A DNA stretch of 64,000 bases, taken from NCBI GenBank assembly GCA_965649765.1, contig OZ287753.1, positions 12,524,001-12,588,000 of the forward strand. Direction: 5' to 3'. The notes beneath the pieces were generated by a model. That model was not told the origin of the DNA. It saw only the letters and a program-made list of their open reading frames with translations, and did not search any database. Both the position numbers and the translations under genes were made by a program. How positions within the stretch are numbered: position 1 is the first letter of the stretch; each line of letters begins with the position of its first letter. Below, one piece after another: positions 5,341 to 64,000 of this stretch. The DNA comes from Bispira polyomma. Taxonomy: Eukaryota.

Positions 5341-6052
5341 CAAATGTGTGTAGTTTGACTCTGACTTTTCCTTTTCCAAACACGTTCCAAACACGTTCAG
5401 AGTGTCAAAAAGTTATTTTGTGCAACTCCGGGACAGTAATTCAGTTTTCAGGAGTCTCTTAAAGTTCAATCTACGCAAATTACAATATATTCAAAATAGT
5501 GCAGCTAGAATTGTGTCAAATACCAGTTAATGCACCAGTATAACTCCTGTTCTTACGAAATTGCATTAGCTTCCTGTTGAATAGCGGTCAGTGTTTAAAA
5601 GGGCCACACATGTTTATAAGTTTATTCACACTCGTTTTCCAAAGTATTTTGCCCCATATCTTTCCTCTTACAGTAGTTCTTACAATACTAGGTGCAGTCA
5701 GAGTGGTAATAATTTCCTTGTAGTTCCAAAGTTCCACCCTTCTACTCAAAATTCAGTTAAACAGTTTGGTTATAGCTGTGCTTTTGATGCTCCCATTGTT
5801 TGGAATACTCTTCCTGATGCGATTTGTGCGCCCCCCTCACTAGCCTCTTTCCAAAAGCAGCTTAAAACCCACCTGTACATCAAAGCATACCCACATTAGT
5901 CCTAATCATCCCCCTGCATTTTATGTGGTGCTTGACCCTTTTTCTATCCCTGGATATTTAAATTGGATTAGTGTCTTTTTGTGCTGTTGCGCATCACAGT
6001 CCCCTTCGTTAAGGGGAGATTAAGCGCTATAAAAGTCTAATTAATTACAATT
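5341..6052 (+). mobile_element. 5'-truncated LINE (family C), same family as 58036-59637
   Basis: High nucleotide similarity to the reverse complement of about 58040-58815. ORF 5591-5899 is FPKYFAPYLSSYSSSYNTRCSQSG...LKTHLYIKAYP. Tail hairpin TCCCCTT-CGTT-AAGGGGA then (AATTAC)n. Confidence 0.88.
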
Positions 6053-17190: not shown

Positions 17191-18879
17191 AAAAAAAAAA
17201 AAAATAAAAAATACTTCCTAGACCTTCCTAAAGACCCTCTCGGACCCTCTTTTTTTACCATAGCACCTTTGGGTGTACAGTAATACAGGCCCCAATAAAC
17301 TCTTAGTGCACCAATGGGTATTATTTTTGAGTATGCAAGTAGCGACAATTTGTGGAGTTTCTGTAAGGCAAGCTTTAATATGCGATCACAGAACCAATGT
17401 ATTGTTTTTGTATAGCATTTCTTTGGGTGGTTTAGCTTGTCTATTACATTTTGGCAATGCCCTCCTGTGCTATGAATGCATAGTCCAGCTGCATTACAGA
17501 AACTTTAAAAAATATACGCAAAAAACACATTGCTATTCTTACGGCATATTGAGGCCTGCATTACGAACCCCCCCCCTCAAAAAAAATAAAAAATGCTGTA
17601 TTAGTGCTCTGAGGGCAGATTGTTGTTGATCATATGACACTCCCAAAATGCTATGGAAAAACTATGAATCAGCTCTCTAAGTGTCTATTGGGACTGGCGC
17701 TCTAAAGGATGACAGATAATTGCCTTTTTAACAAAAAAAAAAATAAGCTTTCATTTTAGATTTAGGCAACAAGCAAGTTTATTATCTGTATAAGGACACT
17801 GTGTTTATGCCATAATATAGGCCCTGTACAATGATAAAGCGCTAGTACTATTGTTATTCTGGTATTTCTGTGTTTAGTAAATCATTACATCACCAATGAA
17901 CTTGAGGGATTCAGTTTCTCAAGTAATAACCCATCTTGCACATTTCACTGTTTGAAAGATAAATGAATTATCATCACTTGTTGTAAGTTGTCATTGTTTT
18001 GCTTTGTTTTGGCCTTGGAGGACAGAGTCGCGTGGGAAAAGCTGTCTATTACTGGATGTAGGTTTTTAAAGGCTGTAAACCTTGCTTTTGGTTTACAACT
18101 TAATTAAAAAATAAAAAAAAAAGTATTTTTAATTTTTATTTTTTTATATATTTTTTTCTATAAAAAAAATTATTTTGTATGTTGTTTTGTTTAGAGTCAC
18201 ATATCTGATAACAACTGATAATACAGACAGACTGTATAAAATTTATGAAAAAAAACACTTTTTTTATGGAGGAGTCCTACTATAATAATAATAATAATAA
18301 GGTATATTCACTCTCCCCCCACCCCCACGACCAAGAAATCCTTACATACCCCTCACCCCCCCCACCCCTCATTGTACAGAATAATATACTTTAGTCTTTG
18401 GATGCTTCAGTAAAATATCCGTCACAATGAACAATACACAAATCAGTAATCAACACAAGATATTTCCCTTCTATATTGTATAAAGTTTTACTAAGCAGAA
18501 GTAAACATGACATTGATTTCCTAGGAGAAAATGTACCCAGGGGTGTTCCATTGTTTTGGAATATGATCATTACTATTCTAACATAACAAATTATATTTTT
18601 TTTACCTAAATCTGGTTTTACTTTGAATTATATCGCCTTAGTGTGGGAACTACTTAAACTAAGTAAATTAGACGTCAGGAAAACCTCGACTGTTCCGACG
18701 TTGTAATCCTAGATAGTTTACCCTACTTTAGAACCAATCAGGATTGGTGACACAAGCTTGTGCCATGTTACACCAGTGCTTAACACACAATCCAACTCCC
18801 ACCCGATCCTCCTCTAGCCTACATAACTCAGTTATTTTACTGTGGGTGATATATACACAACCAACGCAGTATATCCAAC

Positions 18880-19642
18880 TATGGAGCCCCTAAAGTAGCA
18901 TAGCAAGGAGTGAGATTTGTTTAAAATCGTTTCTACAAGATAGTAAGTCATTACCTCAAAATAGAAAGTAGTCTCCTCAAGATTAAAAGTCGTTACCTCA
19001 AGATAGTATATTCTTACCTGAATATAGTATATTGTTACCTGAATACAGTATCTTGTTACCTGAATGCAGTATATTGTTACCTGAATATAGTATATTGTTA
19101 CCTGAATACAGTATCTTGTTACCTGAATACAGTATCTTGTTACCTGAATATAGTATATTGTTACCTGAATACAGTATCTTTTTACCTGAATACAGTATCT
19201 TGTTACCTGAATATAGTATATTGTTACCTGAATATAGTATCGTGTTACCTCACGATAGTATATTGTTACCTGAATACAGTATAGTGTTACCTCAAGATAG
19301 TATATTGCTACATCAAGATAGAAAGTTGTTACCTCAGGATAGTAAGTCATTACCTGATTATAGTATCTTGTTACCTCAAGATAGTATCATGTTACCTTAA
19401 AATAATCGTAACTTTCTATCTTGAGTTAACGACTTTCTACCTTGAGGTAGCGATTTTCTATCTTGACTTAATGACTTTCTATCTTGAGGTAGCGACTTTC
19501 TTTTTAATTAACGACTTTCTATCTTGAGTAAACGACTTTCTATCTTGAGGTAGCGACTTTCTATCTTGAGTAAACAATAGGTTTTTTCAAATCCCCCCCC
19601 CCCCCACACACACATTTGCTATGTCAGTTTAGGGGCTCTGTA
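18880..19642. mobile_element. Non-autonomous TIR DNA transposon (IS3EU-like) with internal 21-bp tandem arrays in opposite orientations
   Basis: TIRs TATGGAGCCCCTAAAGTAGCATAGCAA / TTGCTATGTCAGTTTAGGGGCTCTGTA; flanks TCCAAC / GCCAAC (6-bp TSD, 1 mismatch). 21-mer GTTACCTGAATAYAGTATMTT about 22 times on the left and the inverted GACTTTCTATCTTGAGGTAAC about 8 times on the right. Confidence 0.75.
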
Positions 19643-26060: not shown

Positions 26061-28169
26061 TATGTACTGAGACAGATCGTCACAAAATACTGCAGAGAGT
26101 GCAAAAGTTCCAGGAGGTAGTTTGACCTGGAAAGTTCTTAAGAAGGTTTTACACTCCAGTGCACTTAATATCAAATTGCTGGGTTGTTTCTGAGTAAAGA
26201 GGTGGGGGTTTAAAAGCCCTTTCACCACAGGAATTCTTTAGTATTGTTTTACAAATAGCCTCCCCCCCCCCTCCTAACCCACGCTCCAGTTTTAGTATCT
26301 ATTAGTATCTATTAGACGACTGCCCTCTCTCCCACTGCCAAGTGCATGATGGCAGCATTGTATACTGTAAGTCCATTAAAGCACTACCTGTGGTCAACAA
26401 TAAGCTCAGGGTGTGCAAAAAAACCACAAACCTAGCAGACAGTGCTTATCAGGGTGTTTTTTTTTTTGTCTTTGTTCATTAAAAGTACAGGAAGGAGGAT
26501 GGGAACAATAAGAAGAGAATGACTAGATATTTCTGCCATCTCCTCTGTCTTGGTGGTGGGGTGTGTGATAGGGAAGTAGATTTATCTCAGAAAGCTTCTG
26601 GGAATGCTCTCTCTGTCTTTTGACCAAATATGGGGAAGGGGAGGATTTATAATACATCTTTAGTAGCTGACCGAATGCTGACCTTGGCATTTTTTTTTTT
26701 GTTTTTGTTTTGACAAAAAGGCCAATGGCGGTTTCGAAACAGTCTCCCATTTATCATGGCTATTTTACGACCTAACAAAATTAATTATTTTGTTCAGTGT
26801 TATTGTTCAGTGAATGCACCAATACCTTGTTACATAGGTATTCCAGTCATTACATGTTATGGAAATTCTAATACTCAAACTGGACATTATACATAAATTT
26901 TTAACTTCCAAGAAAAAGTGTACAGAAAATAGGTTGGTAAAAATATTTATATGTATTGCTAAAATTCTGAAATTGATTCTTAAGTTGTGTACAGTTTCAT
27001 AATTAAATTTTGGCAAAGAGATATTTAGGTATTTCTTGTGGACCTTTTTACATAGACAAACTTTACCTACAAATATTCCTGTATATCTCTGTAATAACTC
27101 CTGAAACAACTATGGCCGTTTTAAAGCCTTAAACCATTTCCTAACTTAGAAAATGTCCCGAAATGGCCATGGCAGTTCCGAAACCATCATTGGTCACAAT
27201 TGACTAGTTATCTATCAGTGTCTATAAGTGAATCATGTATATTTATCTGGCTATAAAGGTGGAGGGGGACATATTTGATTGGATAGTACTATATTACCAC
27301 TACTTACAGCTGGTAACATATGACAAAAAAACTGTAAAAACCTTTATGGACTGGCGACTACACGACACAACAGTGCAAAGTACATAAAACACGACACAAT
27401 GCTACATATTTCATATAAAATATGATGTATCTACATAACAAAAGCCACAAACATACCATAATGTGAACGACCTGACGTTTTTTTTTTAAGATTTCTCCCA
27501 GTTTAATTGTCTTATTGGTGTGTGTGTGGTGTAATTGGAAGCAGTCTATATAATGTTTTTATATTTTCTTATTTTAATTTTTTTGCCATATTGTGTAGTG
27601 GGCGGTCTATGAGGGCCTTAAGAAATATTTCCAGACTTACTTATATAATACATAAAAAATCACATATATATCCAACAATAAAGTAGTGTACATATGTTAA
27701 CAATGAAACATAAAACTTAAAAGCAACATATTCAATATGTTAAAAAATATCTGTCACTTCTTGTAAATTATTAACGTTATTTAGTCTATAAATATTTTGT
27801 TTTCTTCATGTGATAAAGATGGCGCTTAAGTTCTAATTTTAGATGTTTTGTTGTTTTGAAATTTACACGAAGTTAACATTTATTTAACAGTTAATCAATG
27901 TTTCTTTCAGTTCTGATGTAAAACATATTGATTGCCACGAAATATTTGTTTAAGGTGTTTGATTCAATAAAAATCACTTCTAAAAGCATCTGTCTGTGAC
28001 ATTACTTTGAAACCACTCAATTGCCAATCATCTTTACTTTTCTAGGTCAGGCTATATTTTGGTTTGTTATTCAATACAAAAGTGCAAAAATGGAACAAAT
28101 AAAGCCCTGTGAAAGAAGTAAATCCCATGTGTAGGGATTGAGCTTTGGCACAGCATTGTGATGCTAAAT

Positions 28170-28760
28170 GACACTGTAATTGACTCTATGAGACTGTTTT
28201 CAACTCTATGAGACACTGTAATCAACTCTATGAGACACTGTAATCAACTCTATGAGACACTGTAATCAACTCTTTGAGACACTCTAATCAACTCAATGAG
28301 ACACTGTAATCAACTCTACGAGTCATTATAATCAACTCTATGAGAAACTGCAATCAACTCTATGAGACTGTAATCAACTTTATAAGACACTGTAATCAAC
28401 TCTATGAGACACTGTAATCAACTCTATGAAACTGTAATCAACTCTATGAGACACTGTAATCAACTATATGAGACACTATAATAAACTCTATGAGACATTG
28501 TAATCAACTCCATGAGACTGTAATCAACTCTATGTGACACTGTTATCAACTCTATAAGACACTGTAATCAACTCTACGAGACTGTAATCAACTCTATGAG
28601 ACACTGTAATCAACTCTATGAGACTGTAATAAACTATATGAGACTGTAATCAATTCTATGTGACACCGTTATCAACTCTATGAGACACCGTAATCAACTC
28701 TATGAGACACTGTAATCAACTCTATGAGACACTGTAATCAACTCTATGGGACACTGCTAT
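28170..28760. repeat. Minisatellite, 22-bp unit TATGAGACACTGTAATCAACTC with 20-bp variants
   Basis: About 27 tandem units directly visible. Confidence 0.95.
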
Positions 28761-28869
28761 GATGCATAAACAAGGGTTTTTGTTTCATAAACGTTGTTCA
28801 ATTGGTTCATGATGAAAATTCTGATCATGCTTCATGGGTCTCAGAGACCTTAGGAGAATCAGGAGGTAC

Positions 28870-36258: not shown

Positions 36259-38147
36259 AGCCCCAGTCACGCTGCAGCTACAAGCTTTAAAGACCATCTA
36301 TGATACAATTATAGCCAAGAACAGTAAAGACTGTATGAGACCAAAGACCAAGGTCTTACTAATTCTTAGGGGCTGAAATTTCTTTTGCCGACTATTGTAC
36401 GACTAGACCAGTCTTAAGGTCATCGTAAGAAAGTATTGGTCTAACAAATGTCTTGTGAATGTATAAGATAACTAGACCTAGATGCATATTTGTATCCACC
36501 AGAAAGACAAAGCACCCTAGATAGCAAGCACCTTAGGTACCAAGCACCCTAGCTAGCACCCAGGTGCTTTAAAGTTTGGTCTACCCGTTTGACCTTGCAC
36601 GATGGATCCAAGGTTAAATCTGACCACAGCAAAAGATCAGCAGTCCATCTGTCCTATAGGTTGGTTTCACATGCAAAAACTTTACGACCAATAATATGCG
36701 AGATATAGGCACTTTTAAGTTTGACCAAGACTGACCTTGAACGAGAGGCCAAAGGTCAAATTGAACCTCATCAAAAGATTCTAAGGCCTTGATTTCGTAC
36801 AGGTTGGTTTCACATTTGAAACCTGTAGGACCAATAATAAGCGATATTTTCATTTGACCTTGAACGAGGGGCCCAAGGTCAAATCAGAGTATATGTAAAG
36901 ATTCCCAGCCCATGAATTTATATAGATTGGTTTTGCACTCCAAACCTGTCGGACCAATAATAAGCTATAGGCACTTTTAAGTTTGGCCATCCGCATTTAA
37001 CCTTGAACAAGGGGCCCAAGCTCAAATTGGACTACATTAAAAGATTCCCAGCCCATGATTTCCTATAGGTTGGTTTCACATCCAAAACCTGTTTGACCAA
37101 AAATAGGTGAGATATAGGCAGTTTTAGGTTTGGCCATCCCTGTTTGACCTTGAAGGAGAGGGCCAAGGTCAAATGTGAGCACATCAACAGATTCCCTGCT
37201 TATGATTTTCTGTAGATTGGTTTCAGATCCCAAACCTATAGGGCCAATATTAAGTGAGGTATAGGCACTTTAAAGTTTCACCATCCTCTTTTGACCTTGA
37301 ATGAGGGACCCAAAGTCAAATCGGACCACATGAAAAGATTCCCAACCCATGATTTCCTATAGGTTTGTTTGAGATCCCAAACCTCTAGGACTAATAATAA
37401 GTGCCAGGACATATATATTCATTAACATATCACCCATAAAGAGATCAACCTTCTACAGCTGAGAAACAGACACAGTAAAAAGCCTAATTATTTTCGAAGA
37501 AATGCCCGTGGCGGCCATCTTGTTTGTCAAAATGAGGCCAAAATTATTCCCAGGCAAGGTTTTGTAATAAAGAACATTTTCTGTAAATGTCAGGAGCCTA
37601 GGTGTAAAAGTTTTCCAGGACAGCGGTAACGGTAAAATCTCTACACACACTTATGCGGCTGCGGCAGCGGCGGCAGCGTAACGATGACTAATCCATAGTA
37701 TCCACCAAAGATTACTTCGGTGGATACAATTAGAGACAGGTTGCAGTCCATTGTATGACCATGTCCAATGTTTTAAAGATCATTTAAAATTTTGAGGATC
37801 ATTGAACAAAGAAACTATCGTTTGGTGGTGATCGGTGATTGGTTATTGTATTTTGTGCAAGTAGTTAATGTCACTAAGTGACCATTGTTTGCTGAGTGAT
37901 TCCTGAGCAGTCTCTTAAGAAAGCTAATGTTTGTGTTGGAAGTTGGTGGGATCGGTCACTAGTTAGGACGTTGCGCGCAATAGTTGCCGTCAATGAGCGA
38001 CTACTTGGCAATTACTGGGATGTTTTCTTAGCCAATTAAAGACAACCTTAGCTTAATCTTTGTACAACTTATTCTAAGGCGTGACAAACCTAAGCATTAA
38101 TCAACAATCTGTCTTCGGCAGCTCGTAACAGCTGTGTGACTGGGGCT
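36259..38147. mobile_element. Harbinger-like MITE hosting a nested Helentron-associated element
   Basis: TIR AGCCCCAGTCAC / GTGACTGGGGCT with AAA/ATA flanks. Confidence 0.65.
36471..37730 (+). mobile_element. Helentron-associated non-autonomous element (DINE-1/pearl-like) with about 147-bp tandem core repeats
   Basis: ACTAG start; sub-TIR TGTATCCACC (36491) / GGTGGATACA (37719); about 5.5 core repeats with period 147 (ataggca at 36967, 37114, 37261); (GCG)n-like microsatellite near 37655-37680; 3' hairpin GTATCCACC...GGTGGATAC. Confidence 0.75.
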
Positions 38148-44168: not shown

Positions 44169-44565
44169 GGAAATCATCATGACCAGCCATAGCTGGAACA
44201 GGGCATATAAGTTTAATGACAAGGAAATGATGGGGGCAGCAGACACTCATGACAACTATAGTAAGGACCTGGCATGTCATATGACTTTTGGTCATGATTA
44301 TTCTCAGTACATGTGTAATATCATAGATAAGATCATTGAAAAAGATACCATGTATGTTAAATGTAATAAAGTTCAAAAACCCAGAGATAATTGGAAAAAT
44401 ATGCACAAGGTGAGTTGTACTTCCGCTCCGCTCATTAACAACCTGGATGGGCTGGTGGGCCCTGACATGGAGGTTAATTCTTCTTCAAAAACGTTACCCA
44501 ATAAGGACATCGACAACCCTGATAAAAACACAGGTTTTATCAAACTTACTAGTACTCCATTTCAA
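44169..44565 (+). repeat. 397-bp inverted duplication of 45078-45474
   Basis: Reverse complement with only about 5 substitutions; explains ORF 44167-44586. Confidence 0.95.
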
Positions 44566-44582: not shown

Positions 44583-46213
44583 ATAAAATTTTGTGTTGTC
44601 ATAACTGTCCCTACTGGCGTGATCATTTACTGAATCACCCAATGGGTGGGAAAGATTTAGAATGACTCTACGTTTATCCTGATCTTTAGGTCTGGTTAAC
44701 AAGGGGGAACAATGGTAATGTGGATCTGGAAGTATGTCCACTGGACCTAACATGGCCCCTTTAGACTTCTCTTTCTCAAGATATTGAACAATCGCATTTG
44801 AGTATTCAAGAGCCAAGTGATGATTAGTCACGTGTTTAGCTTGCAACTGATCTGCATTATATAATGACAACGGAAAACCGAATTTCAAGTATTGTGTAAC
44901 TATCTTATCTGGGTGATCCTGCGTTATTTTTTCCCATGCAGCGATATTTAGTTGAGACTTGATAGGTATTCTTGCCTGTCTGTAATTCGGAAGTCCTGTG
45001 TCTCTTATAATATTTGCAACATGCATAATGTTCTCAATACTATCTAGCAGAACCGAATCCCTGTCTGGTCCTACAAATTGAAATGGAGTACTAGTAAGTT
45101 TGATAAAACCTGTGTTTTTATCAGGGTTGTCGATGTCCTTATTGGGTAACGTTTTTGAAGAAGAATTAACCTCCATGTCAGGGCCCACCAGCCCATCCAG
45201 GTTGTTAATGAGCGGATCGAAAGTACAACTCACCTTGTGCATATTTTTCCAATTATTTCTGGGTTTTTGAACTTTATTACATTTAACATACATGGTATCT
45301 TTTTCAATGATCTTATCTATGATATTACACATGTACTGAGAATAATCATGACCAAAAGTCATATGACATGCCAGGTCCTTACTATAGTTGTCATGAGCGT
45401 CTGCTGCCCCCATCATTTCCTTGTCATTAAAGTTATATGCCCTGTTCCAGCTATGGCTGGTCATGATGATTTCCTGCCTTTCTACAACATCTAACCGAAA
45501 ACCTGGCATGGCATCCAAGCGTGTATAATTGAAAGTATTACCTGCCTGATCCCACTCCCTAGTGCAAAAACCTGACATGTCATGATAATTTGGAAACTGC
45601 AAGTATACCAAAACTTTAACCATGCCATTGCTGGAATAGTAATCATAGTAATCATAATTCATTACAGAAACTATACATTTAGTCTCAAAAGTGCCTCCAT
45701 ACCACAGCACACACTGTTTGTCATATTGTTTATCATCTGGTCTCTGAACATGACAATAGCCATGTCTATAATTAAACCCGTCTACATCAAACAGAAAGTT
45801 ATTATTACCATTGCTATGGTAGCCTAATTGGGTAAATTCAAATTTTTGTGATATTTCCACAATTTGATTTTCCTTTCTTGGGAAATCTCCTCTGCTACCC
45901 TGCAAATTTCCCTTACAGTGTTTAATCATGTCTGTTTTCTTGTTAAACCTGTCATTGCCCTGTTCAGAGACACTAGGAATAGTGGTTTCACCATTTACAA
46001 TTATTTTTACATTTGTATTTTTATACTGCTATTTTTAACTATATGGGGCCCCTGTGGGGTCCTCTGTGATTCTTTTGAACCAACTAAACATATACTTTTT
46101 ACCTTATAGCTGTCGTCATTTCCAACATTATTATAATTACTGACTATATCTCTAGTACTCTTAAATAAACTGCACTCTCTGATAGTTCGTTTACTTGGTT
46201 GTCGATCTACTTC
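44583..46213 (-). pseudogene. pol N-terminal part of Ngaro-like copy 2 (unassigned domain + start of RT)
   Basis: ORF 45929-44562 homologous to 61236-62400 (FIGPDRDSV / FVGPDRDSV, PNY.QARIPIKSQLNI, YLKFGFPL). One frameshift in an A-run near 46020. Confidence 0.85.
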
Positions 46214-47070
46214 CTAACTGGGTGTCTGCTTGTCCGAGGATCTTTTGGTGACATTCGCCTTAACACATTTGAATTCTGGATGTGTGTTCTCCCTATTTGC
46301 TGAGCGAAAACAATGGTTACATATGTGGCGATATTGTCCGTGGCCGGACTCGTGGTTGCAAGTGCCGTTATTGTAAAATTTACAAACATTCTTGGGTTTT
46401 TGTGATGCCTGTGATGCCTGTGGGGCCTGCGCGACGTGGCCGTTAATCAGAGCCAGCTGCAATGTATTCATGCGATTTAGAGCCCACTGTGTAGAGTTCG
46501 ACCAATCCAGTCTACCCTCTTCCACCTCCTGCATGTTCAATGCCCAACCTGCTCTAACAGCTGGCCAGGGAAGAGAAGCCGAATCCCTCAGAGTATAAAT
46601 CATTTGGTACATCATGTGCCGCATGGTAGTGGCATCTGAGACTTGTACAATGTTAAATAACTGCCCGGCAGCCTACTGTGACAGTGAGAAGTCATCAAAG
46701 CTAGGTCGTTTCCGAGCAGTGCCTCCGATCCAGCCCTCGTTTGACCACCGAGATTGTGGATCAGACGTAATAACGTCTGTGGTGTTAAACCGACCGGATG
46801 TGTAGGAGAGGTTAATGGGGTCGAGTTACACGCACCTTTAAATTCCACCTTATCGAGCCGTCTATTATTTTCAGAATTTGCTGATTCCAGCCTTTTTGAA
46901 ATAGTCATTACGTCTGAAATACCATTCTCACCCGTCGCTGTCTGTGCTTCTGTCTCCTTTGTGATCCTAAGTTTCCTAACTACTGGATCTGTGCCTTTGG
47001 TTGTCCCGCGTTTAGAGGTCGTTTTCTTCTTGGATAACGGAACACTACCTGGTGTTTTCGTCTTCCCCAT
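46214..47070 (-). pseudogene. gag-like ORF1 of Ngaro-like copy 2 (about 270-bp internal deletion with frameshift, one stop)
   Basis: MGKTKTPGSVPL...DPVV...NSTPL then SGRFNTTD...LPWPAVR..WALNMQEVEEGRLDW...CKFYNNGTCNHESGHGQYRHICNHC..HPEFKC, homologous to 60099-61061. Confidence 0.85.
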
Positions 47071-49542
47071 ATTGTGTAAATATTAAAACACTAATAAAAT
47101 CACTTGTAAAAGAACATAAAACTTTAAATGTATAACAGTTATAAATTTTTTTTTTTATTTGTTGTTGATCCTTCTAATTAAGGGTGGCCTAATTAGTGAT
47201 TGGTTCATTAGGACATGTGTGAGGAAAATGTGTGTGCACAAGAATAGTCTTTTTAAAAGGGGTATTTATTGGGATGGTGAACTGATTCAGCAGACCCCTA
47301 AAGTTGTCGTGCTCGACATTTATTCAAGGCCTGTTTATGTGTTTACGTTACTAAAGCCTTAAGTAAAGGTACAGCCTTGCTCAACTTTGAGCTTGAGTTG
47401 AGCAAATATTTCAGCTCAAAATATTGGAGAATACAAACTGAGTTGAGATATAATATTATCTCAACTAAGCAAAAACTCAGAATTGAGTCGAATTTTGAAC
47501 CTAGGTTTCTTTCAGGAATATGGCGGATGGGACAGCATAAAAAGCAATATTAAAATGAATGGTTACAAGTATAGGTTACTTCCATCGACAAAGATTTCCA
47601 CATAGCCTTCATTTGAGCTGAGTAATTTTGAGTTTCAGTTTTTTTGGAGAATACAGGTCCAGGTTTAATTTTTGCTATAGCTAGGACCAAGTTGCAGTGG
47701 ATGTTTTTGTAGTAGCGTGGTCTCCAGAGTTTGTGTAATACAAATGAAAGATCCAGAGGATTCTTTGGTGTGAAGGTAAAACTAATACTTTGTGACAGTC
47801 AAAAACAGTAGTTTTGACTATCTTTTATGTGTTTTAGCCTTGTCTAGAGTCACTCCAATACCACTAAAAGAGCAAGATGTTTCCTACCGTGTGAATGTGA
47901 AGCTAACACTTTATGACAGTCAAAAACATTGGATTTGAATATCTGTTATATTTGTACACTCTCAGCCCACAACTGGAGACCAACATTTTGTTTCCTATCA
48001 GTTCCTCATGGGCCAGCATGGTCATGTTTTATGTTGTCAGTTCAGTTTGTACACTCTCAGCCCACAGCTGGAGACCAACATGTGCTCTCCTATCAGTTCC
48101 TCATAGGCCAGCTTGGCCATGTTTTATGTTGTCAGTCCAACAGCCGAATTTAAAAAGGTAGAATACTGAAGATACTGAGGCTTTTATAGTACAAGGCAAT
48201 GAACTGGTCCCCTAAAACTGATCATACCACCACTAGGGTGGTGCCCCGCAAATCCTGGTGATTGGAAGTTGATCTGGTGTTCAAAATGCCGGTTGGGAGG
48301 CTTGGTCTGGTATGGCCCTGGGGTTCGACTCCTAATAGTTGGCACTGGTTACATTTGTAGGATGGCATCCTTGGACAATATTGCTAACATGTCTTTGTAT
48401 AGTGGCTCAGATAAATCTTTAAAATGGTGTCCCTCTGCCATTGGGTCCGATCCCCAGTGGCTGGCTAAAGATTGTTGGAGCCGTTGATAAATTGTGTCAT
48501 CTCCAAGCCCCTCTCTTCGGTTAGGCGAATGATAGTGTTTCATGCTGGTTGGTTGTTGGCAATCAAAAAAAAAATTTTTAGGATTAAGTATTGCTTTAAG
48601 TTATAGATGAATGTAGATAAATGCGCAAAGTATAACATTGAAAGCAGAACAGGTTGTCTCCTTGGTCCAAAGATTAGGCCAGATAACTACTGGAGTCTCA
48701 TCATCTGATATAACTATTTTTACCACCAGCAGCTTCAAATAACTATTATTTCGTCTATTTCTGGAACATCTTTTTTAAAAACCCAGGTCCTTAAACCAAA
48801 AGCCCAAAATGCGTATATGAATAGTGTAATAGTGTAAATAATGCTAATGGTACGACACATGTAACAATGTTAACTGAAACAGTTCATTCACACATTGCTG
48901 TCTTTCAGCCATTATATTACATATTTTAAGTTTTACGCTTTCAAAATTCCTCATGTCACAGTATGATGGACAGTTCACTGGTGGAGGAAATCAGAACAGT
49001 TGGTAGTTGGTCAAGATTTTCTGCTCTACAATACACCAGCCTTCAGCAAGTCTAGTGCTAACCTTTCCACATATACTCAGGCACAATATTCGAACCTCCA
49101 CTGCAGCGGTGGGAGGCAAGTGTGTTGCCACTACACCACAGATGCTTCTTAAGCCTTTTTTTGCAACAATCAGCCATATTGTGTTCAAACATTTCAAAAT
49201 AGTTTTTACCATTTGGTCAATTACATTTCATTAGTTACATATTATAAAGACAGGAAGTGCACATCGAACACAAAAGCCGTCAGTGATCAATTTGTAACTG
49301 TACTATATCTGGGAGAATAATGTACATATAAAAAGTTCCCAGAAAATATAAAAGATATTGCACAGTAAGTTGGACAATATCTTATTATTTCCTTTAAAAT
49401 ACACTGTTGTCAGTCTTTTTAATAGGAATAAAGTACCTATCGGCCCTTGTCCATTATTCCGCCTTAAGTCAGTCCTTTAATCACTAATACAGTACCAACC
49501 CTTGAACTGTATTTCTACAATAAACTACATAAATAAAAAATA

Positions 49543-58035: not shown

Positions 58036-59637
58036 TTAATTGTAATTGTAATTAGACTTTTATCGCGCTTAATCTCCCCTTAACAAAGGAGACTCTAAGG
58101 CGCACCAGCACAAAAGACAGTTATCCAATTTCCCAAATCAAGGGACAGAAAAAGGGTCAGCAACATAGAGCGCTCTGGGGGATGATTGAGATTAAGGTGG
58201 ATATGCTTTAGTGTACAAGTGGGTTTTAAGCTTCTTTCTAAAACAGGCTAGTGAGGGGGAAGCACGAATCACATCAGGAAGACCATTCCAAACAATGGGA
58301 GCATCAAAAGCAAAGCTGTGACCAAACTGTTTTACCGACTTTTGAGTAGATGGGTGGGACTTCAGAACAACAAGGAAATTACTACCACTCTGACTACATC
58401 TGGTATTGTAGGAACTACTGTAAGTGGAAAGATATGGGGCAAAATACTTTGGAAACCCAGTGTAGAGAAACTTATAAACAAGTGTAGCTGTCTTAAACAC
58501 TGAATGCTGTTCAACAGGGAGCCAATGCAATTTCTTAAGAACAGGAGTTGTACTAGTGTATCGACTGGTGTTTGACACAATTCTAGCTGCACTATTTTGA
58601 ATGCATTGTAATTTGCTTAAATTAAACTTTGAGAGACTCCTGAAAAGTGAATTGCAGTAATCCAGTCTACTACTGACAAAAGCATTGGCCACAAGTATAG
58701 AAGCATCATAAGTGAGAAACCGTCTGACACGTCTAAAGTCACGGAGTTGCATAAAACAGCTTTTGCAGACACTCTCAACGTGTTTAGAGAAAGAAAAGTC
58801 AGAGTCAAACCATACACCCAGGTTCTTGACAGAATCAGCTGGACTGAAAGGGCTACCCAGGATGTCAACTGGAAATAATGCTTTCAACTTATCTCTCTGT
58901 TGTTTTGAGCCAAAGATTATGAACTCAGTCTTGTCGGGATTAAGTTTGAGTTTACCAGTTGACATCCACTCTTTCACATCGTCAAGGCACCTGTTCAATT
59001 GTTCAAAGGCAGTAGATGTGTTTTTATGGGATAGGTGCACATAAATTTGGGTATCATCTGCATAAAAATGAAACTTTATTCCTGTGTATTTGCCAATAAC
59101 CAATCTGAGAGGAGCAGTGTATAATGAGAACAACAGAGGGCCCAAAACAGAACCTTGAGGGACACCAAACAAGAGTTTACAAAGATCGGACAGAGTAGAG
59201 CCAATTTTTATCGACTGATAACGATCAGTTAAGTAGGAAGTGAACCATTTAAGAACAGAGCCCGTAACTCCAAACCAAGTCTGAAGACAACTGAGAAGCG
59301 TGGAATGATCAATGGTGTCAAAGGCAGCAGAGAGTTTGAGCAATACCAGGGAAGTAGGTTCCCCTCTTGACAAAGATAAGTGAACTTCATTTTTTATAGA
59401 CAGAAGAGCTGTCTCAGTCGCATGACCAGTTTTATACGCAGACTGGTATGGGTTGTCTAAGTCGTGGACAAAGATGTGATCTAACAGTTGCCTAGCAACC
59501 ATGCGTTCAACCAGTTTTGATATGAAACTAAGACCAGATACAGGGCGATAATTCTTCAGGTCATCAACAGGAAGAGAAGCCTTCTTAATAAGAGGATTAA
59601 CCACATCTGTTTTAAAACCATCAGGTACATGTCCCTT
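58036..59637 (-). mobile_element. CR1/L2-type LINE (family C): RT half plus 3' tail, abutting the Ngaro-like element
   Basis: Open ORF 59604-58192 with NYRPVS, AAFDT, GVPQGSVLGPLLF, YADDTQ, KLNPDKTE, LDYCNS and LHWLP; tail hairpin and (AATTAC)n near 58036-58110. Confidence 0.93.
58192..59604 (-). pseudogene. LINE reverse transcriptase ORF (truncated; motif-A Asp replaced)
   Basis: 470 open codons, but no endonuclease domain, and LLKLSAAFD where LLDLSAAFD is expected. Confidence 0.8.
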
Positions 59638-59942
59638 CGTAAGTGTGCCCAGCAGTCCACTTTAGGGGACTGCTACCTCAGTTGACCCTCCTGTCCAAAT
59701 CCACTTTTGTAAAACTATTCTTGTTCTGAAAATTTTCCACCCCTTTTAATTAGGTATCCAATTAGTGAACAGACCCCCCTGAATTAGCATGTGCATTCCC
59801 TCACACATTCTCCATTTTGGAAAAGACATTTCAAGGGTAAACACCCATTTTATGAAAAATTTCATTAATTCAATTTACTGTGATATTTAAGTTTTATTTG
59901 TTTTTACATGAGTTTTAAGTATTACAGTGCGTGTTATACACT

Positions 59943-61061
59943 ATGGGAAGGACAAAGCAAACCAAAACGCCAAGTAGTGTGCCTTTAAAGAAGAAGACAT
60001 CTGCAGGTACACGTAAGGCAATAACAAAATCATCCGATCCGGTGGTAAAGAACTTGAGTGTTCCATTATCACAAGGGGAGGCTACTAGGTAAGACGATAT
60101 GTTTGAGGTTATGAACATACTCCGGAAACTTGAGTCAGCTAATGCTTCTATAAGCAAGCGGCTAGATGAGGTCGAAACAAGGGGGTCGCGCAACTCCACA
60201 CCACTGAACTCACCCCCCTACCCGGCTAGAAACGACACAGTTCTGGATTTGGGTTTACATGCACAGCCACGGACCTCGGCTTTACTTCAACCTCAGGCTT
60301 TCACTCAACAGTTGCCAGGAATCCCTCCGGTGAGGGCGCATATGGACTACCAACGGGATGCCATTATACCCCGACCTGACGTCCTTAAGTCAATACCTGA
60401 AGTAACAGCAGCGGTTAACCAGAGACTGGCTGCGTATGATATACAACTCCGCCAGGACCTATCTCAAGGTAAGCCATCTTTGTGCCAGAAATCCGGCAGA
60501 TTTAATACCACGGACATTTGCAGTGCTGACCCTCAGTCTCGCTGGGCCAACGAAGGCTGGCTCGGTGGAACTGCACGGAAGCGTCCTCAGTACGACGAGC
60601 TATCTCTCCCCCAGTGGGCTGCTGGCCAATTATTTAACATTGCTCAAGTATCTGATAATACGGTGATTCGACAGATGCTTAACCAGGTAATTTTCTCACT
60701 GAGGGATGCAGCCTCCCTCCCCTGGCCGACTGTCAGATCTGCATGGGCCCTGAACATGCAGGAAGTGGAGGAGGGACGGCTTGAATGGGATAACACTACT
60801 CAATGGGCCCTAAACAGGCTTAGCACTTCCCAGCTAGTGCTCGCTAATTCTCAGGTAACACAGTCATCACAGAAACCAAAAACAGTCTGCAAATATTACA
60901 ATAATGGTACTTGTTCACATGAGAATGATCACAGCCAGTACAGGCATATTTGCAGTCATTGTCATCGCGTGCTAAACAGAGATAGTAATCATCCGGAGTT
61001 CAAGTGTGTTAAGGCCAATTCTGCAAAACGTACAACTGATGTCAAGTCATCTACCAGTTAG
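59943..61061 (+). CDS. gag-like ORF1 (premature TAA at 60090-60092)
   Basis: ATG at 59943 (MGRTKQTKTPSSVPLKKK..DPVV) matches the copy-2 N-terminus and is in frame with ORF 60099-61061; C-terminal CKYYNNGTCSHENDHSQYRHICSHC..HPEFKC. Confidence 0.82.
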
Positions 61062-63602
61062 GGATCTCCTGTACGACCAAATGAACGAACAATCAGAGAG
61101 TGCAGTGCTTGTAATAGTAGTAATGGTGAAACTAAAGTTTGTCAGTTTAATGTCTGTAGTCTGAGGAATATAACTAGGAGTGTCGATAAATGTCAGGTTA
61201 GATTTGCAGAGGAGTATCAGAAAGCAGATGTTAGATTGGTGGCGCAGGAACTTGCTAATGATAATATATATATGTCAGATAACAGTGACCAGATAACATC
61301 TTCTCAGTATAACAGTACTAGCATAAACAAGTGCAATATAATCAGGGGATGTTCATGGCATAACATAATAGTATACTTAAAATTCCACAACTTTCAAGAC
61401 ATGTCAGGTTTCTGTTATTTGTCATTTGACAGCAGTACTAGTACTTATACCTACAATCACATTGGCAATGGTCCAAGTTTCCCTATTAGGGTAAACGGAA
61501 ATCAAACACTGCAAATGACAGTGCATAAAAGGCACACTGTGAGTACACATTCAGCATTGGCAGTACTGGAGGCAAATAATACTTACTTTAACTACAAAAG
61601 AGACCTGATATGTTGGGAAAGCTTGGGTTATGATTATACTCAATTTATTCATGATATTATTGATGAAATTGTCATGCAGGATAATGTCAAAAGATATAAA
61701 ACAAAATTAAATGTATGCGATAATAAACTAAACGACTATGAGAATGCAAAGGTGAGTAACAACTCCGTCCGTGATTACAATGTTCACTTTGTGGAGGGGT
61801 TGGGCAACCTTCACACAGCTACCATTTCTTCTACGAAAACTAAGGACTTTACTGATATCTCAGACAGCTCTAAACACATTGGTTTTATTAAACTTGTTGA
61901 ACAAAAATTCAACTTCATCGGACCTGACAGGGATTCGGTCGATATTGTTGACATTACTCAGATGTGCAAAGTTGCAAACATTATTAGGAAAACGAGAGTT
62001 CCAAATTATAAACAAGCTCGAATTCCAATAAAATCTCAGTTAAACATAGATGTCTGGGAGAGAATAACCAGACATCACCCTGATAAGATTATTACTCAGT
62101 ACTTAAAATTCGGGTTTCCTCTCTTACTTGACAACCCCGATCAGCTTCAGTGTAAAGAGGTAACTAATCACCACTCTGCTTTACAGCACACAGAAGCAAT
62201 TGTAGAATATCTTAAGAAAGAACAGCATAAGGGTGCCATGTTAGGCCCAGTTCGAGAGATTCCCGACTCTCACTTTCACTGCTCACCTTTACTTACTAGG
62301 CCAAAGGACTCAAATAAATGTTAAGTCATACTTAATTTATCATACCCCAAAGGTCAATCAGTTAACGACAACGTTAATAGGGAAATTTTTGACAATACAA
62401 AATTTCTTTTAAAATTTCCAAACATAGATCACATTACTGATAGTATTAGGTCTACACTTGATCCAGTCATGTTTAAGGTCGACGTAGCTCGCGCTTTTAG
62501 AAATTTAAGGGTAGACCCAGTAGATAGCTTAAAATTAGGCATAAAACATGGTAACAGTTACTTCATGGACGCGGCGGTCGCATTCGGCTGGGCTCATGGA
62601 AGCGCGGCTTTTCAGCGTTGCTCGGACATAATTTCTGACCATATGGCCACTTTAGGTTTCAACTTATTCTGCTATATCGACGACTACATTTGCGTATGTT
62701 CTAAAGCTGGTGCCAGCAGGGGATTTGATATTCTCTGTAATTTACTCAGTGAGTTAGGTCTCCCTATCAATCAGGACAAGGTCAGCTCCCCTGACACACA
62801 TGTAACTTACTTGGGGATAGATATCAACATTTCAGCTGGAACCATTAGTATTACCCCTGGAAAAATCACACAAATTTACAACATCTGCGTTGAGGCCAGG
62901 AGTAAGTCATGGCTTTCACGTAGCAGATTTCAATCAATCCTAGGCAGTTTACTGTACGTTCACAAATGTGTGAAACCAGCTAGGTGTTTTATTAATAGAC
63001 TCTTATCAGTGTTCAGAGCTTCACCTAACGCCAAAAGGTTCAAGGTCACAGACAACATTAAAATAGACTTAGATTGGTTTATACATTTTCTAGTATCTTA
63101 CAATGGAATTACATATATTGACCCAGTGGACATTAAGTCAGGACAGGAATTACACCTTGATGCTTGCCTTTCTGGACTGGGAGCCATCTGGGGTTCTGAA
63201 GTTTACCATACCCCTGTTTATAATATATATCAACAAGATTTGGCTATAACTCAGTTAGAGATGCTTAATATCGTTATCGCTTTGAAAGTGTGGGGCAGGG
63301 ATTGGGCTCACCAAAAAGTATTATTAAACTGTGATAACATGGCCGTGGTTTTGGTCGTACAGACAGGTAAAACTAGGGATGCCTTCCTGGCTACATGTAT
63401 AATGAATATTTGGCTTATCACCTCCACACTGGACATAACTCTTAGGATACAGCACATTAGGGGTAAGGAGAATATATATGCAGATGCACTTTCGCGTATG
63501 TATTCAAACAACCCACCTAGACCAGAAATCATGCAACTTCTCAATGCTTATACCTGTAAACCGGTTCCTTTAAAATTATTTAACCTTGATTATAACATAT
63601 GA
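61062..63602 (+). CDS. pol: unassigned domain + reverse transcriptase + RNase H (premature TAA at 62322-62324)
   Basis: Same frame as gag directly after TAG 61059-61061. ORFs 61236-62324 and 62469-63602 are one frame with KC*VILNLS where copy 2 has KRRVILNLS. Confidence 0.87.
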
Positions 63603-64000
63603 TTTCAGGTGCTACTGCTTCATCACAACAACTGGGGTTAGCAGCCATCTCAAGAATCAATGCAGCTTTGAGACCTTCAACTACTTCAGCTTATGTCAGT
63701 CAATTTAGAACATTTCTTGCTTTTTTGCAATATGCTGCAATTCAAAACATTACTGTACATTCTATTCTGGCTTTTCTGGAATATTTAGTTCAAAATAACA
63801 TTTCTCCAAAAGTCATAAATAACTACATCTCAGCACTGAAATTCATGTCTGCAAAATACCACTTGGATACACAAGCATTCCAGCACAACTCTATATCACT
63901 CTTTACACGTAGTCTTGCCTTGAATTCTTCCTTTAGACCTGCAGTCAAAGGGATTTTCCAGATCAAACAACTACTACAAATATCACAGGTGTGTAGCATT
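63599..64000 (+). CDS. Tyrosine recombinase, N-terminal (core-binding) part, open to the window end
   Basis: MISGATASSQQLGLAAISRINAALRPSTTSAYVSQFRTFLAFLQY...ILAFLEYLVQNNISPKVINNYISALKF...; 134 open codons; the ATG overlaps the pol stop (ATGA). Confidence 0.85.
   Translation, partial: MISGATASSQQLGLAAISRINAALRPSTTSAYVSQFRTFLAFLQYAAIQNITVHSILAFLEYLVQNNISPKVINNYISALKFMSAKYHLDTQAFQHNSISLFTRSLALNSSFRPAVKGIFQIKQLLQISQVCSI

Follow-up and report, generated by a model that had tools for sequence, protein, structure and literature searches.

Readthrough of a UAG-G stop yields Gag-Pol in gammaretroviruses. More broadly, the type III readthrough signals are described, in the parts of the source covered here, as UAG-G contexts for which a structure further downstream is generally required (PMC13517186), and in the tombusvirus CIRV readthrough of UAG GGA GGC needs pairing over ~3.5 kb (PMC13517186, PMC3234231). 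Other means of bypassing an in-frame stop exist, as is shown by the Candida albicans element Tca2, whose local junction sequence alone gave no readthrough (PMC2194720). The ORFs of tyrosine-recombinase (YR) retrotransposons are described as overlapping or frameshifted (PMC9210276, PMC3783388, PMC6681497). In the literature found, so far as its covered parts go, the question of how such elements express both pol and recombinase from one RNA is not addressed, and no readthrough is reported for any YR retrotransposon, older reviews, Repbase and supplements lying outside the search; the covered portion of a recoding review mentions neither DIRS nor Ngaro.

Here we describe two YR retrotransposon copies from a window of 64 kb, the whole stretch of DNA that was analysed. 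We propose that their family makes Gag-Pol by programmed UAG-G readthrough, stimulated by a predicted helix that joins nucleotides +8..+20 to codons of RNase H lying 2.3 kb downstream, a reading that we hold to be reasonably probable from the sequences. Coordinates are those of the window; all features of copy 1 lie on its forward strand and all those of copy 2 on its minus strand.

Two Ngaro-like elements in the window

The window is AT-rich and repeat-rich, eukaryote-like DNA. Classed by domain content, both copies are Ngaro-like YR retrotransposons. Copy 1 (59660-64000) has its 3' end beyond the window, and copy 2 (44586-47304) is decayed and truncated ahead of RNase H; their 5' ends align (59659-59738 versus 47304-47223, 73%). 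Copy 1 has a gag-like ORF (59943-61061), whose C-terminal Cys/His zinc finger appears as conserved Cys/His columns in the alignment. The pol frame (61062-63602) comprises a variable linker, an N-terminal domain, a reverse transcriptase (RT) and an RNase H; Pfam places the RT (RVT_1, E 2.5e-10) and RNase H-like domains downstream of 62325. A methyltransferase, which is a feature of DIRS-like and PAT-like elements, unlike Ngaro-like ones, is absent from pol, which, both in copy 1 and in a 45-row alignment, ends ~35 aa past the final motif of RNase H. The YR ORF follows pol on the same strand, and its N-terminal part (63596-64000) contains Phage_int_SAM domains at 63596-63997 (Phage_int_SAM_1, E 7.5e-9), with the catalytic part outside the window. 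Ngaro-like elements carry split direct repeats (A1 ... B1-A2-B2), whose 3' part would lie past the window in copy 1. In L003, a relative 34% identical, we found one direct repeat of 211 bp that is 100% identical, and no B pair was seen.

The first-pass annotation had described 59943-63602 of copy 1 as a single frame with three stops, and this is borne out: from the ATG at 59943 the frame meets TAA at 60090-60092, TAG at 61059-61061 and TAA at 62322-62324 before the pol stop at 63600-63602. It had also taken the outer two as decay. This stands for 62322, which is decay, since the family has a near-invariant Arg there, and is insecure for 60090, whose supposed Glu counterpart in copy 2 is doubtful: this stop adjoins an indel and is aligned to Asn of copy 2, not Glu, in one alignment. 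Copy 2 itself has suffered a deletion in gag and a frame change near 46800, a gag Trp position has become TAG (46675-46673), and an inverted duplication cuts its RT short near 44590.

A spliced RNA, with its acceptor at 63609, is the probable source of the recombinase. A candidate phase-1 acceptor, TTTCAG/G (63600-63609), stands where the YR ORF begins, and a candidate phase-1 donor, AG/GTAAG (60468-60474), lies in the conserved Q-G-K motif of gag, the GK of which is present in 74 of the 93 related gags carrying the SGR motif. In all five elements with a YR start to compare (copy 1 and L002-L005) this start consists of a run of pyrimidines and a phase-1 AG, with no conserved ATG; the ATG of copy 1 at 63599 overlaps the pol stop. 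A donor-like AAG/GTGAGT at 61752, present in copy 2 too, was rejected, since its phase does not match that of the YR acceptor.

The in-frame stop between gag and pol

The gag stop of copy 1 (TAG, 61059-61061; UAG-GGA) lies in the pol frame, and that of copy 2 (TAG, 46214-46216) reads UAG-GAA. As had been recognised earlier, the two share one place and one context, CC AGT TAG G at 61059 and at 46216-46214 on the minus strand, and a third copy, on a contig from sequencing runs containing the element, also has TAG GAA. Measured against the readthrough context UAG-GGV/-GUA/-GAU, copy 1 fits, and copy 2 and the third copy share only the G at +4. Between copies 1 and 2, pS is 0.84 in gag and 0.79 in pol, and pN is 0.18 and 0.22, respectively. 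This synonymous saturation indicates that the copies belong to separate lineages, both under selection while carrying the TAG, and that the stop is therefore not shared decay.

Relatives extend this pattern. Among the matches listed, gag searches gave 28 + 150 relatives, 176 of them distinct, and 57 of the 176 keep the last zinc finger; gag ends 12-18 aa past the last zinc-finger Cys in 38 of these 57, earlier in 5 and later in 14, compared with 17 aa in copy 1 and 16 aa in copy 2. Eight gags run on past the stop position (seven of the 14 longer ones and one found separately). With its place judged by eye from the closest relative that terminates, the former stop is occupied by Tyr in four, Gln in two, and Trp and Glu in one each. 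TAG is the only codon one step away from all four residues (8/8), and the following codon begins with G in six of the eight; four Tyr is more than expected from the mutation spectrum of the element contigs. The other longer gags comprise P0156, which looks frameshifted at the stop, and six whose tails diverge earlier or are short, which were left out. A frame-shifted relative, read in the +1 frame, can be reconciled with two others only by a TAG stop followed by G.

The distant relatives L001 and L003 (30-34% identical over the matched pol segment) are the two of six metagenome loci that bear the junction, and both read gag-TGA-C-pol in one frame; the ORFs of L003 are intact. On this comparative sequence evidence, we regard an in-frame stop between gag and pol as real across the family. 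Searches with the gag alignment in three collections and with pol in viral and genome contigs turned up no close relatives at the DNA level, and a weak search of 2,576 candidates gave no longer fused gag proteins.

The frame that follows the TAG of copy 1 contains no stops in 104 codons, versus 7 and 21 in the other two frames, and these open codons lead into a conserved domain common to the long pol relatives. That of copy 2 stays open for 68 codons. The first-pass annotation had claimed that a small correction near 46020 would bring copy 2 into pol; a break into the pol-ORF frame does occur there, and the copy has undergone more decay than that claim allowed. The pol N-terminal domain (61293-61718), defined by conserved columns and a structure model, is predicted to form a beta sheet and two helices. 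It has no Pfam match at cut-off, and Atlas matches to CUB stayed below 0.9 with low recognition, the best structural Z being 4.6 with the whole model used. No protease motif was seen past the gag stop. Frameshifting at the end of gag was rejected, as the -1 frame closes ~20 nt past the stop in both copies and in copy 2 the +1 frame meets a stop immediately.

If pol instead had a start of its own, through an internal promoter or reinitiation past the stop, the block conserved behind that stop (described below) could be a promoter or initiation element. The block is constrained at the nucleotide level without a fold, the Tca2 junction contains a minor promoter (PMC2194720), and among the best 120 of 155 pol relatives each pol ORF has some Met upstream of RT. 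However, the earlier observation that copy 1 has no in-frame ATG for ~70 codons holds, the first post-stop Met being codon 71 there, codon 5 in L001 and codon 99 in L003. No conserved Met starting pol was found in copy 1, L001, L003 or the pol relatives, and among the same 120 the called pol starts are scattered and cannot be aligned; none of the 120 carries the gag finger. In one protein, P0028, gag continues through Tyr, in the pol frame and with no Met between, as far as the pol N-terminal domain (E 1.5e-6). Nor does a separate start explain why the frame is open, and keeps its phase, all the way from the stop; we consider such a start quite unlikely.

Splicing provides another conceivable route to pol, with TAG/G serving as a 3' splice site (it matches YAG/G) or an intron removing the stop, in an element that appears to splice for YR. 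However, no pyrimidine tract precedes the TAG, and both copies have an AG 4 nt upstream of it; Lys, Asn and Gln abound in related gag tails; the Q-G-K donor is in phase 1 and TAG/G in phase 0; and the distant relatives have TGA-C at the stop. Pol by splicing is thus very improbable. Expression of pol by UAG-G readthrough, which the first-pass annotation had proposed from two copies, is now backed beyond them by the stops of relatives and by in-frame pol; we infer that readthrough occurs, and think it likely.

A predicted helix spanning 2.3 kb

Beyond the codon itself, sequence around the stop is conserved at the nucleotide level. Over codons -2..+15, 16 of 18 third positions are identical between the copies, versus a fraction of ~0.42 elsewhere (binomial p 5e-5), which points to a nucleotide-level signal around the stop. 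The block AACGAAC.ATCAGAGAGTGCAGT, noted previously as shared downstream of the TAG, is real: 61077-61106 is identical to copy 2 at 27 of 30 positions (pS 0.16 versus 0.79-0.84), the best 30-nt stretch of either codon-aligned region, and is under nucleotide-level constraint. Its suggested role as the stimulator fares less well, for there is no local structure and the best candidate, at +8..+20, lies upstream of most of the block and overlaps it by 5 nt only. Ten local folds after the stop gave z from -1.7 to +2.1 and an alignment fold -0.7 kcal/mol; with these null folds and no Rfam match, a local hairpin or pseudoknot of the kind found in MuLV was rejected, pseudoknots having been checked via listed stems only.

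A duplex scan of copy 1 located a 13-bp complement whose strands lie 2.3 kb apart, enclosing a loop of 2,268 nt. The proximal strand (61069-61081) begins 7 nt past the stop, and all 13 of its bases can form Watson-Crick pairs with the distal strand (63350-63362), which encodes V-L-V-V-Q of RNase H (A-V-V-Q-V-V in the family). This is the longest complement, and the only one of at least 12 bp, among the sampled 40-mers of the 4.3-kb element, and 11 of 5,000 shuffles attained a 13-bp complement. The duplex energy is no better than that of shuffled blocks (-32.3 versus -29.7 +/- 2.9). Pair probabilities are 0.89-1.0 in a 2.45-kb fold, which means only that nothing local competes. In copy 1 only, a predicted extension pairs the stop and spacer (61060-61068) with 63376-63384, with p 0.96-0.99 for eight of the nine bases in the partition function of 61001-63450.

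Copy 2 keeps the proximal strand and conserved block (46169-46206) and has lost the distal partner. The reverse complement of its proximal strand reads L-V-V-D, versus L-V-V-Q in copy 1, and its differences from copy 1 face wobble or variable positions. In L001 (p ~0.7) and L003 (9 bp, p ~0.97) helices from +7 are predicted with other sites; these predictions were made without a control and are not counted.

A trace of the helix can be sought in the proteins of relatives, since the antisense of the RNase H site predicts P/L-P/L-G/E-R/P/Q in the post-stop peptide or, in the next register, H/N/D-L-H/N/D-H/N/D. Post-stop peptides, from gags 34-70% identical, were scored against the antisense of each position in a profile back-translated from 49 pol relatives, with the copies in the window excluded; this family test is built from proteins and not DNA, and each sequence carries little information. 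The RNase H site was fixed beforehand from copy 1 DNA, and the scoring length, the offsets and three added tails were chosen after the peptides had been seen. A first unanchored scan with seven peptides at one fixed offset left the RNase H site outside the top 6, and a subset of five peptides ranked it first. Given one codon of freedom, four of the seven run-on peptides each rank the site first of 2,341 and three do not, and the summed score of the seven was attained by none of 20,000 random sets. Pooling ten tails with free register, the site scores 44-53 (top of ~2,350), the next site 30-32 and a sense control 29-31; with six codons scored, five of the ten tails singly rank the RNase H site first. 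Neither P0167 nor P0156 fits and P0191 is a weak fit, and the motif is not enriched near called pol starts (1/512 versus 13/7,642 positions).

The Gln of the RNase H site is present in 61 of 69 relatives, and copy 1 has Leu. Scored against this Gln-based family profile, the DNA of copies 1 and 2 places the site 50th and 60th of 2,361 at best. Copy 1 departs from the family on both strands with pairing kept, Leu replacing Gln and the proximal strand changed to match.

The complementarity could nonetheless be chance or a by-product of amino-acid composition, leaving readthrough to the local context alone. The peptide test is indeed low in information, its choices were in part post hoc, and three of ten tails fit poorly. 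However, two largely independent lines, the DNA of copy 1 and the peptides in two registers, converge on the same codons; we consider this explanation scarcely probable, and the helix very likely a selected feature.

A helix that forms and is selected may still serve something else beside a genuine readthrough stop, such as joining the gag donor to the YR acceptor, packaging or reverse transcription. Its place is within the predicted intron of 3.1 kb, 250 nt upstream of the acceptor, and L001 and L003, which are without copy 1's pairing, retain in-frame UGA-C. However, the distance from proximal strand to stop is constant within ~1 codon across subfamilies, which is the spacing of known stimulators (PMC3159437), and we judge such another role unlikely. 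That the helix drives readthrough is, in our estimate, somewhat probable.

A model, and its place among known systems

Hypothetically, most ribosomes would stop at the UAG, yielding Gag from the full-length RNA. With the helix at the mRNA entry channel, termination would be slower, and a minority of ribosomes would insert an amino acid at the UAG and continue into pol, giving Gag-Pol; a spliced RNA would supply Gag(N)-YR. We infer helix formation, and its tie to readthrough, from the complementarity and the trace in relatives. On the broader proposition, that a cellular retrotransposon family sets its Gag:Gag-Pol ratio by a kilobase-scale helix and obtains three proteins from one promoter through readthrough and splicing, we see the chances as evenly balanced. 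Both helix strands would be present only on full-length, unspliced RNA, so truncated copies would be unable to make polymerase.

What is new is a localised candidate for a kilobase-scale readthrough stimulator, a long-range design that we found described only for plant RNA viruses, and its exact coordinates make the helix model testable. If the model is true, long-range readthrough stimulators are found in a cellular mobile element as well as in plant viruses, and the element possesses a built-in check against truncated copies. Short reporter inserts would then fail to capture such signals, which may be one way to read the negative result with Tca2, and annotators would cease scoring such elements as broken.

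Like Ngaro-like elements of the order DIRS, the elements studied here combine a zinc-finger gag, RT/RNase H without a methyltransferase and then a YR, and the identical direct repeat of L003 is placed like A1/A2. They differ in a pol N-terminal domain that Pfam does not match at cut-off, and the covered parts of the published descriptions mention neither readthrough nor an in-frame stop at the end of gag nor a long-range helix. With Tca2 they share a gag and a pol in frame across one stop; in Tca2, however, this is UGA, in an LTR element, and the covered part of the source leaves the mechanism of bypass unresolved (PMC2194720).

The UAG-GGA, the 7-nt spacer and the 13-bp stem of copy 1 fit the type III signals as far as the covered parts of the sources define them (PMC13517186, PMC3159437). 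MuLV likewise has an in-frame UAG-G between gag and pol, with structure predicted from 7-8 nt past the stop (PMC13517186), whereas here there is no local pseudoknot or hairpin, no protease motif after the stop, and a partner strand 2.3 kb off. The alphavirus, furovirus and Drosophila kelch signals also pair stems of 11-14 bp with spacers of 7-12 nt and were revealed by synonymous-site conservation, but their loops are ~100-270 nt (up to 268), versus 2,268 nt here, and their stops are mostly UGA (PMC3159437). In the PRTE-DRTE system of the tombusvirus CIRV, as in the model proposed here, polymerase is produced by readthrough of UAG GGA with kilobase-scale RNA pairing (PMC3234231, PMC13517186). 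The proximal element of CIRV, however, is part of a large local stem-loop and its partner lies at the 3' end, whereas the helix predicted here begins right past the spacer and has its partner in the RNase H coding region of a cellular retrotransposon.

Recombinase start and predicted splice sites

In all five elements where the start of the tyrosine recombinase (YR) ORF was compared, namely copy 1 (window 63600-63609) and four loci from the metagenome scan (L002-L005), the ORF opens with a phase-1 splice-acceptor-like site, and no conserved ATG is present at the YR ORF start across these same five. Within gag, the codons of a Q-G-K motif (window 60468-60474) form a donor-like site that is also in phase 1. 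The recombinase is likely made as a spliced Gag(N)-YR fusion.

Other donor-like sequences occur in the copies. AG/GTAAGA at window 60086-60094 contains the first stop of copy 1, and G/GTGAGA lies at about the same position in copy 2 (near 46931-46926); this position is a possible second splice donor. Both copies also share AAG/GTGAGT (window 61752; near 45233 in copy 2), which sits in a poorly conserved region of pol and whose phase at 61752 does not match the YR acceptor.

Surroundings and rearrangements of the copies

An ORF of 489 aa (window 58192-59661, minus strand) encodes the reverse-transcriptase motif YADD and is taken to be LINE-like; it stops at the point where copy 1 starts, and copy 1 seems to have inserted into it. 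A second, partial copy of this ORF lies at window 5433-6043 (84-90%). At the truncation point of copy 2, part of its pol forms a 397-nt inverted duplication (99%; window 44169-44565 and 45078-45474). Tandem arrays occupy window 18863-19591, 28104-28833 and 36697-37403, with units of 21, 22 and about 147 nt.

Relatives of the family

At the N-terminus of pol (window 61293-61718) lies a conserved domain of ~140 aa, common to the 75 long relatives aligned; comparisons with known families and folds gave no assignment for it. The four related gag proteins with Tyr at the stop position (P0008, P0012, P0028 and P0231) are the same four that best fit the predicted long-range RNA helix. Among the distant elements, L003 (1-5702) is apparently intact and young, carries an in-frame TGA-C, and is well suited as an experimental substrate for the distant clade.
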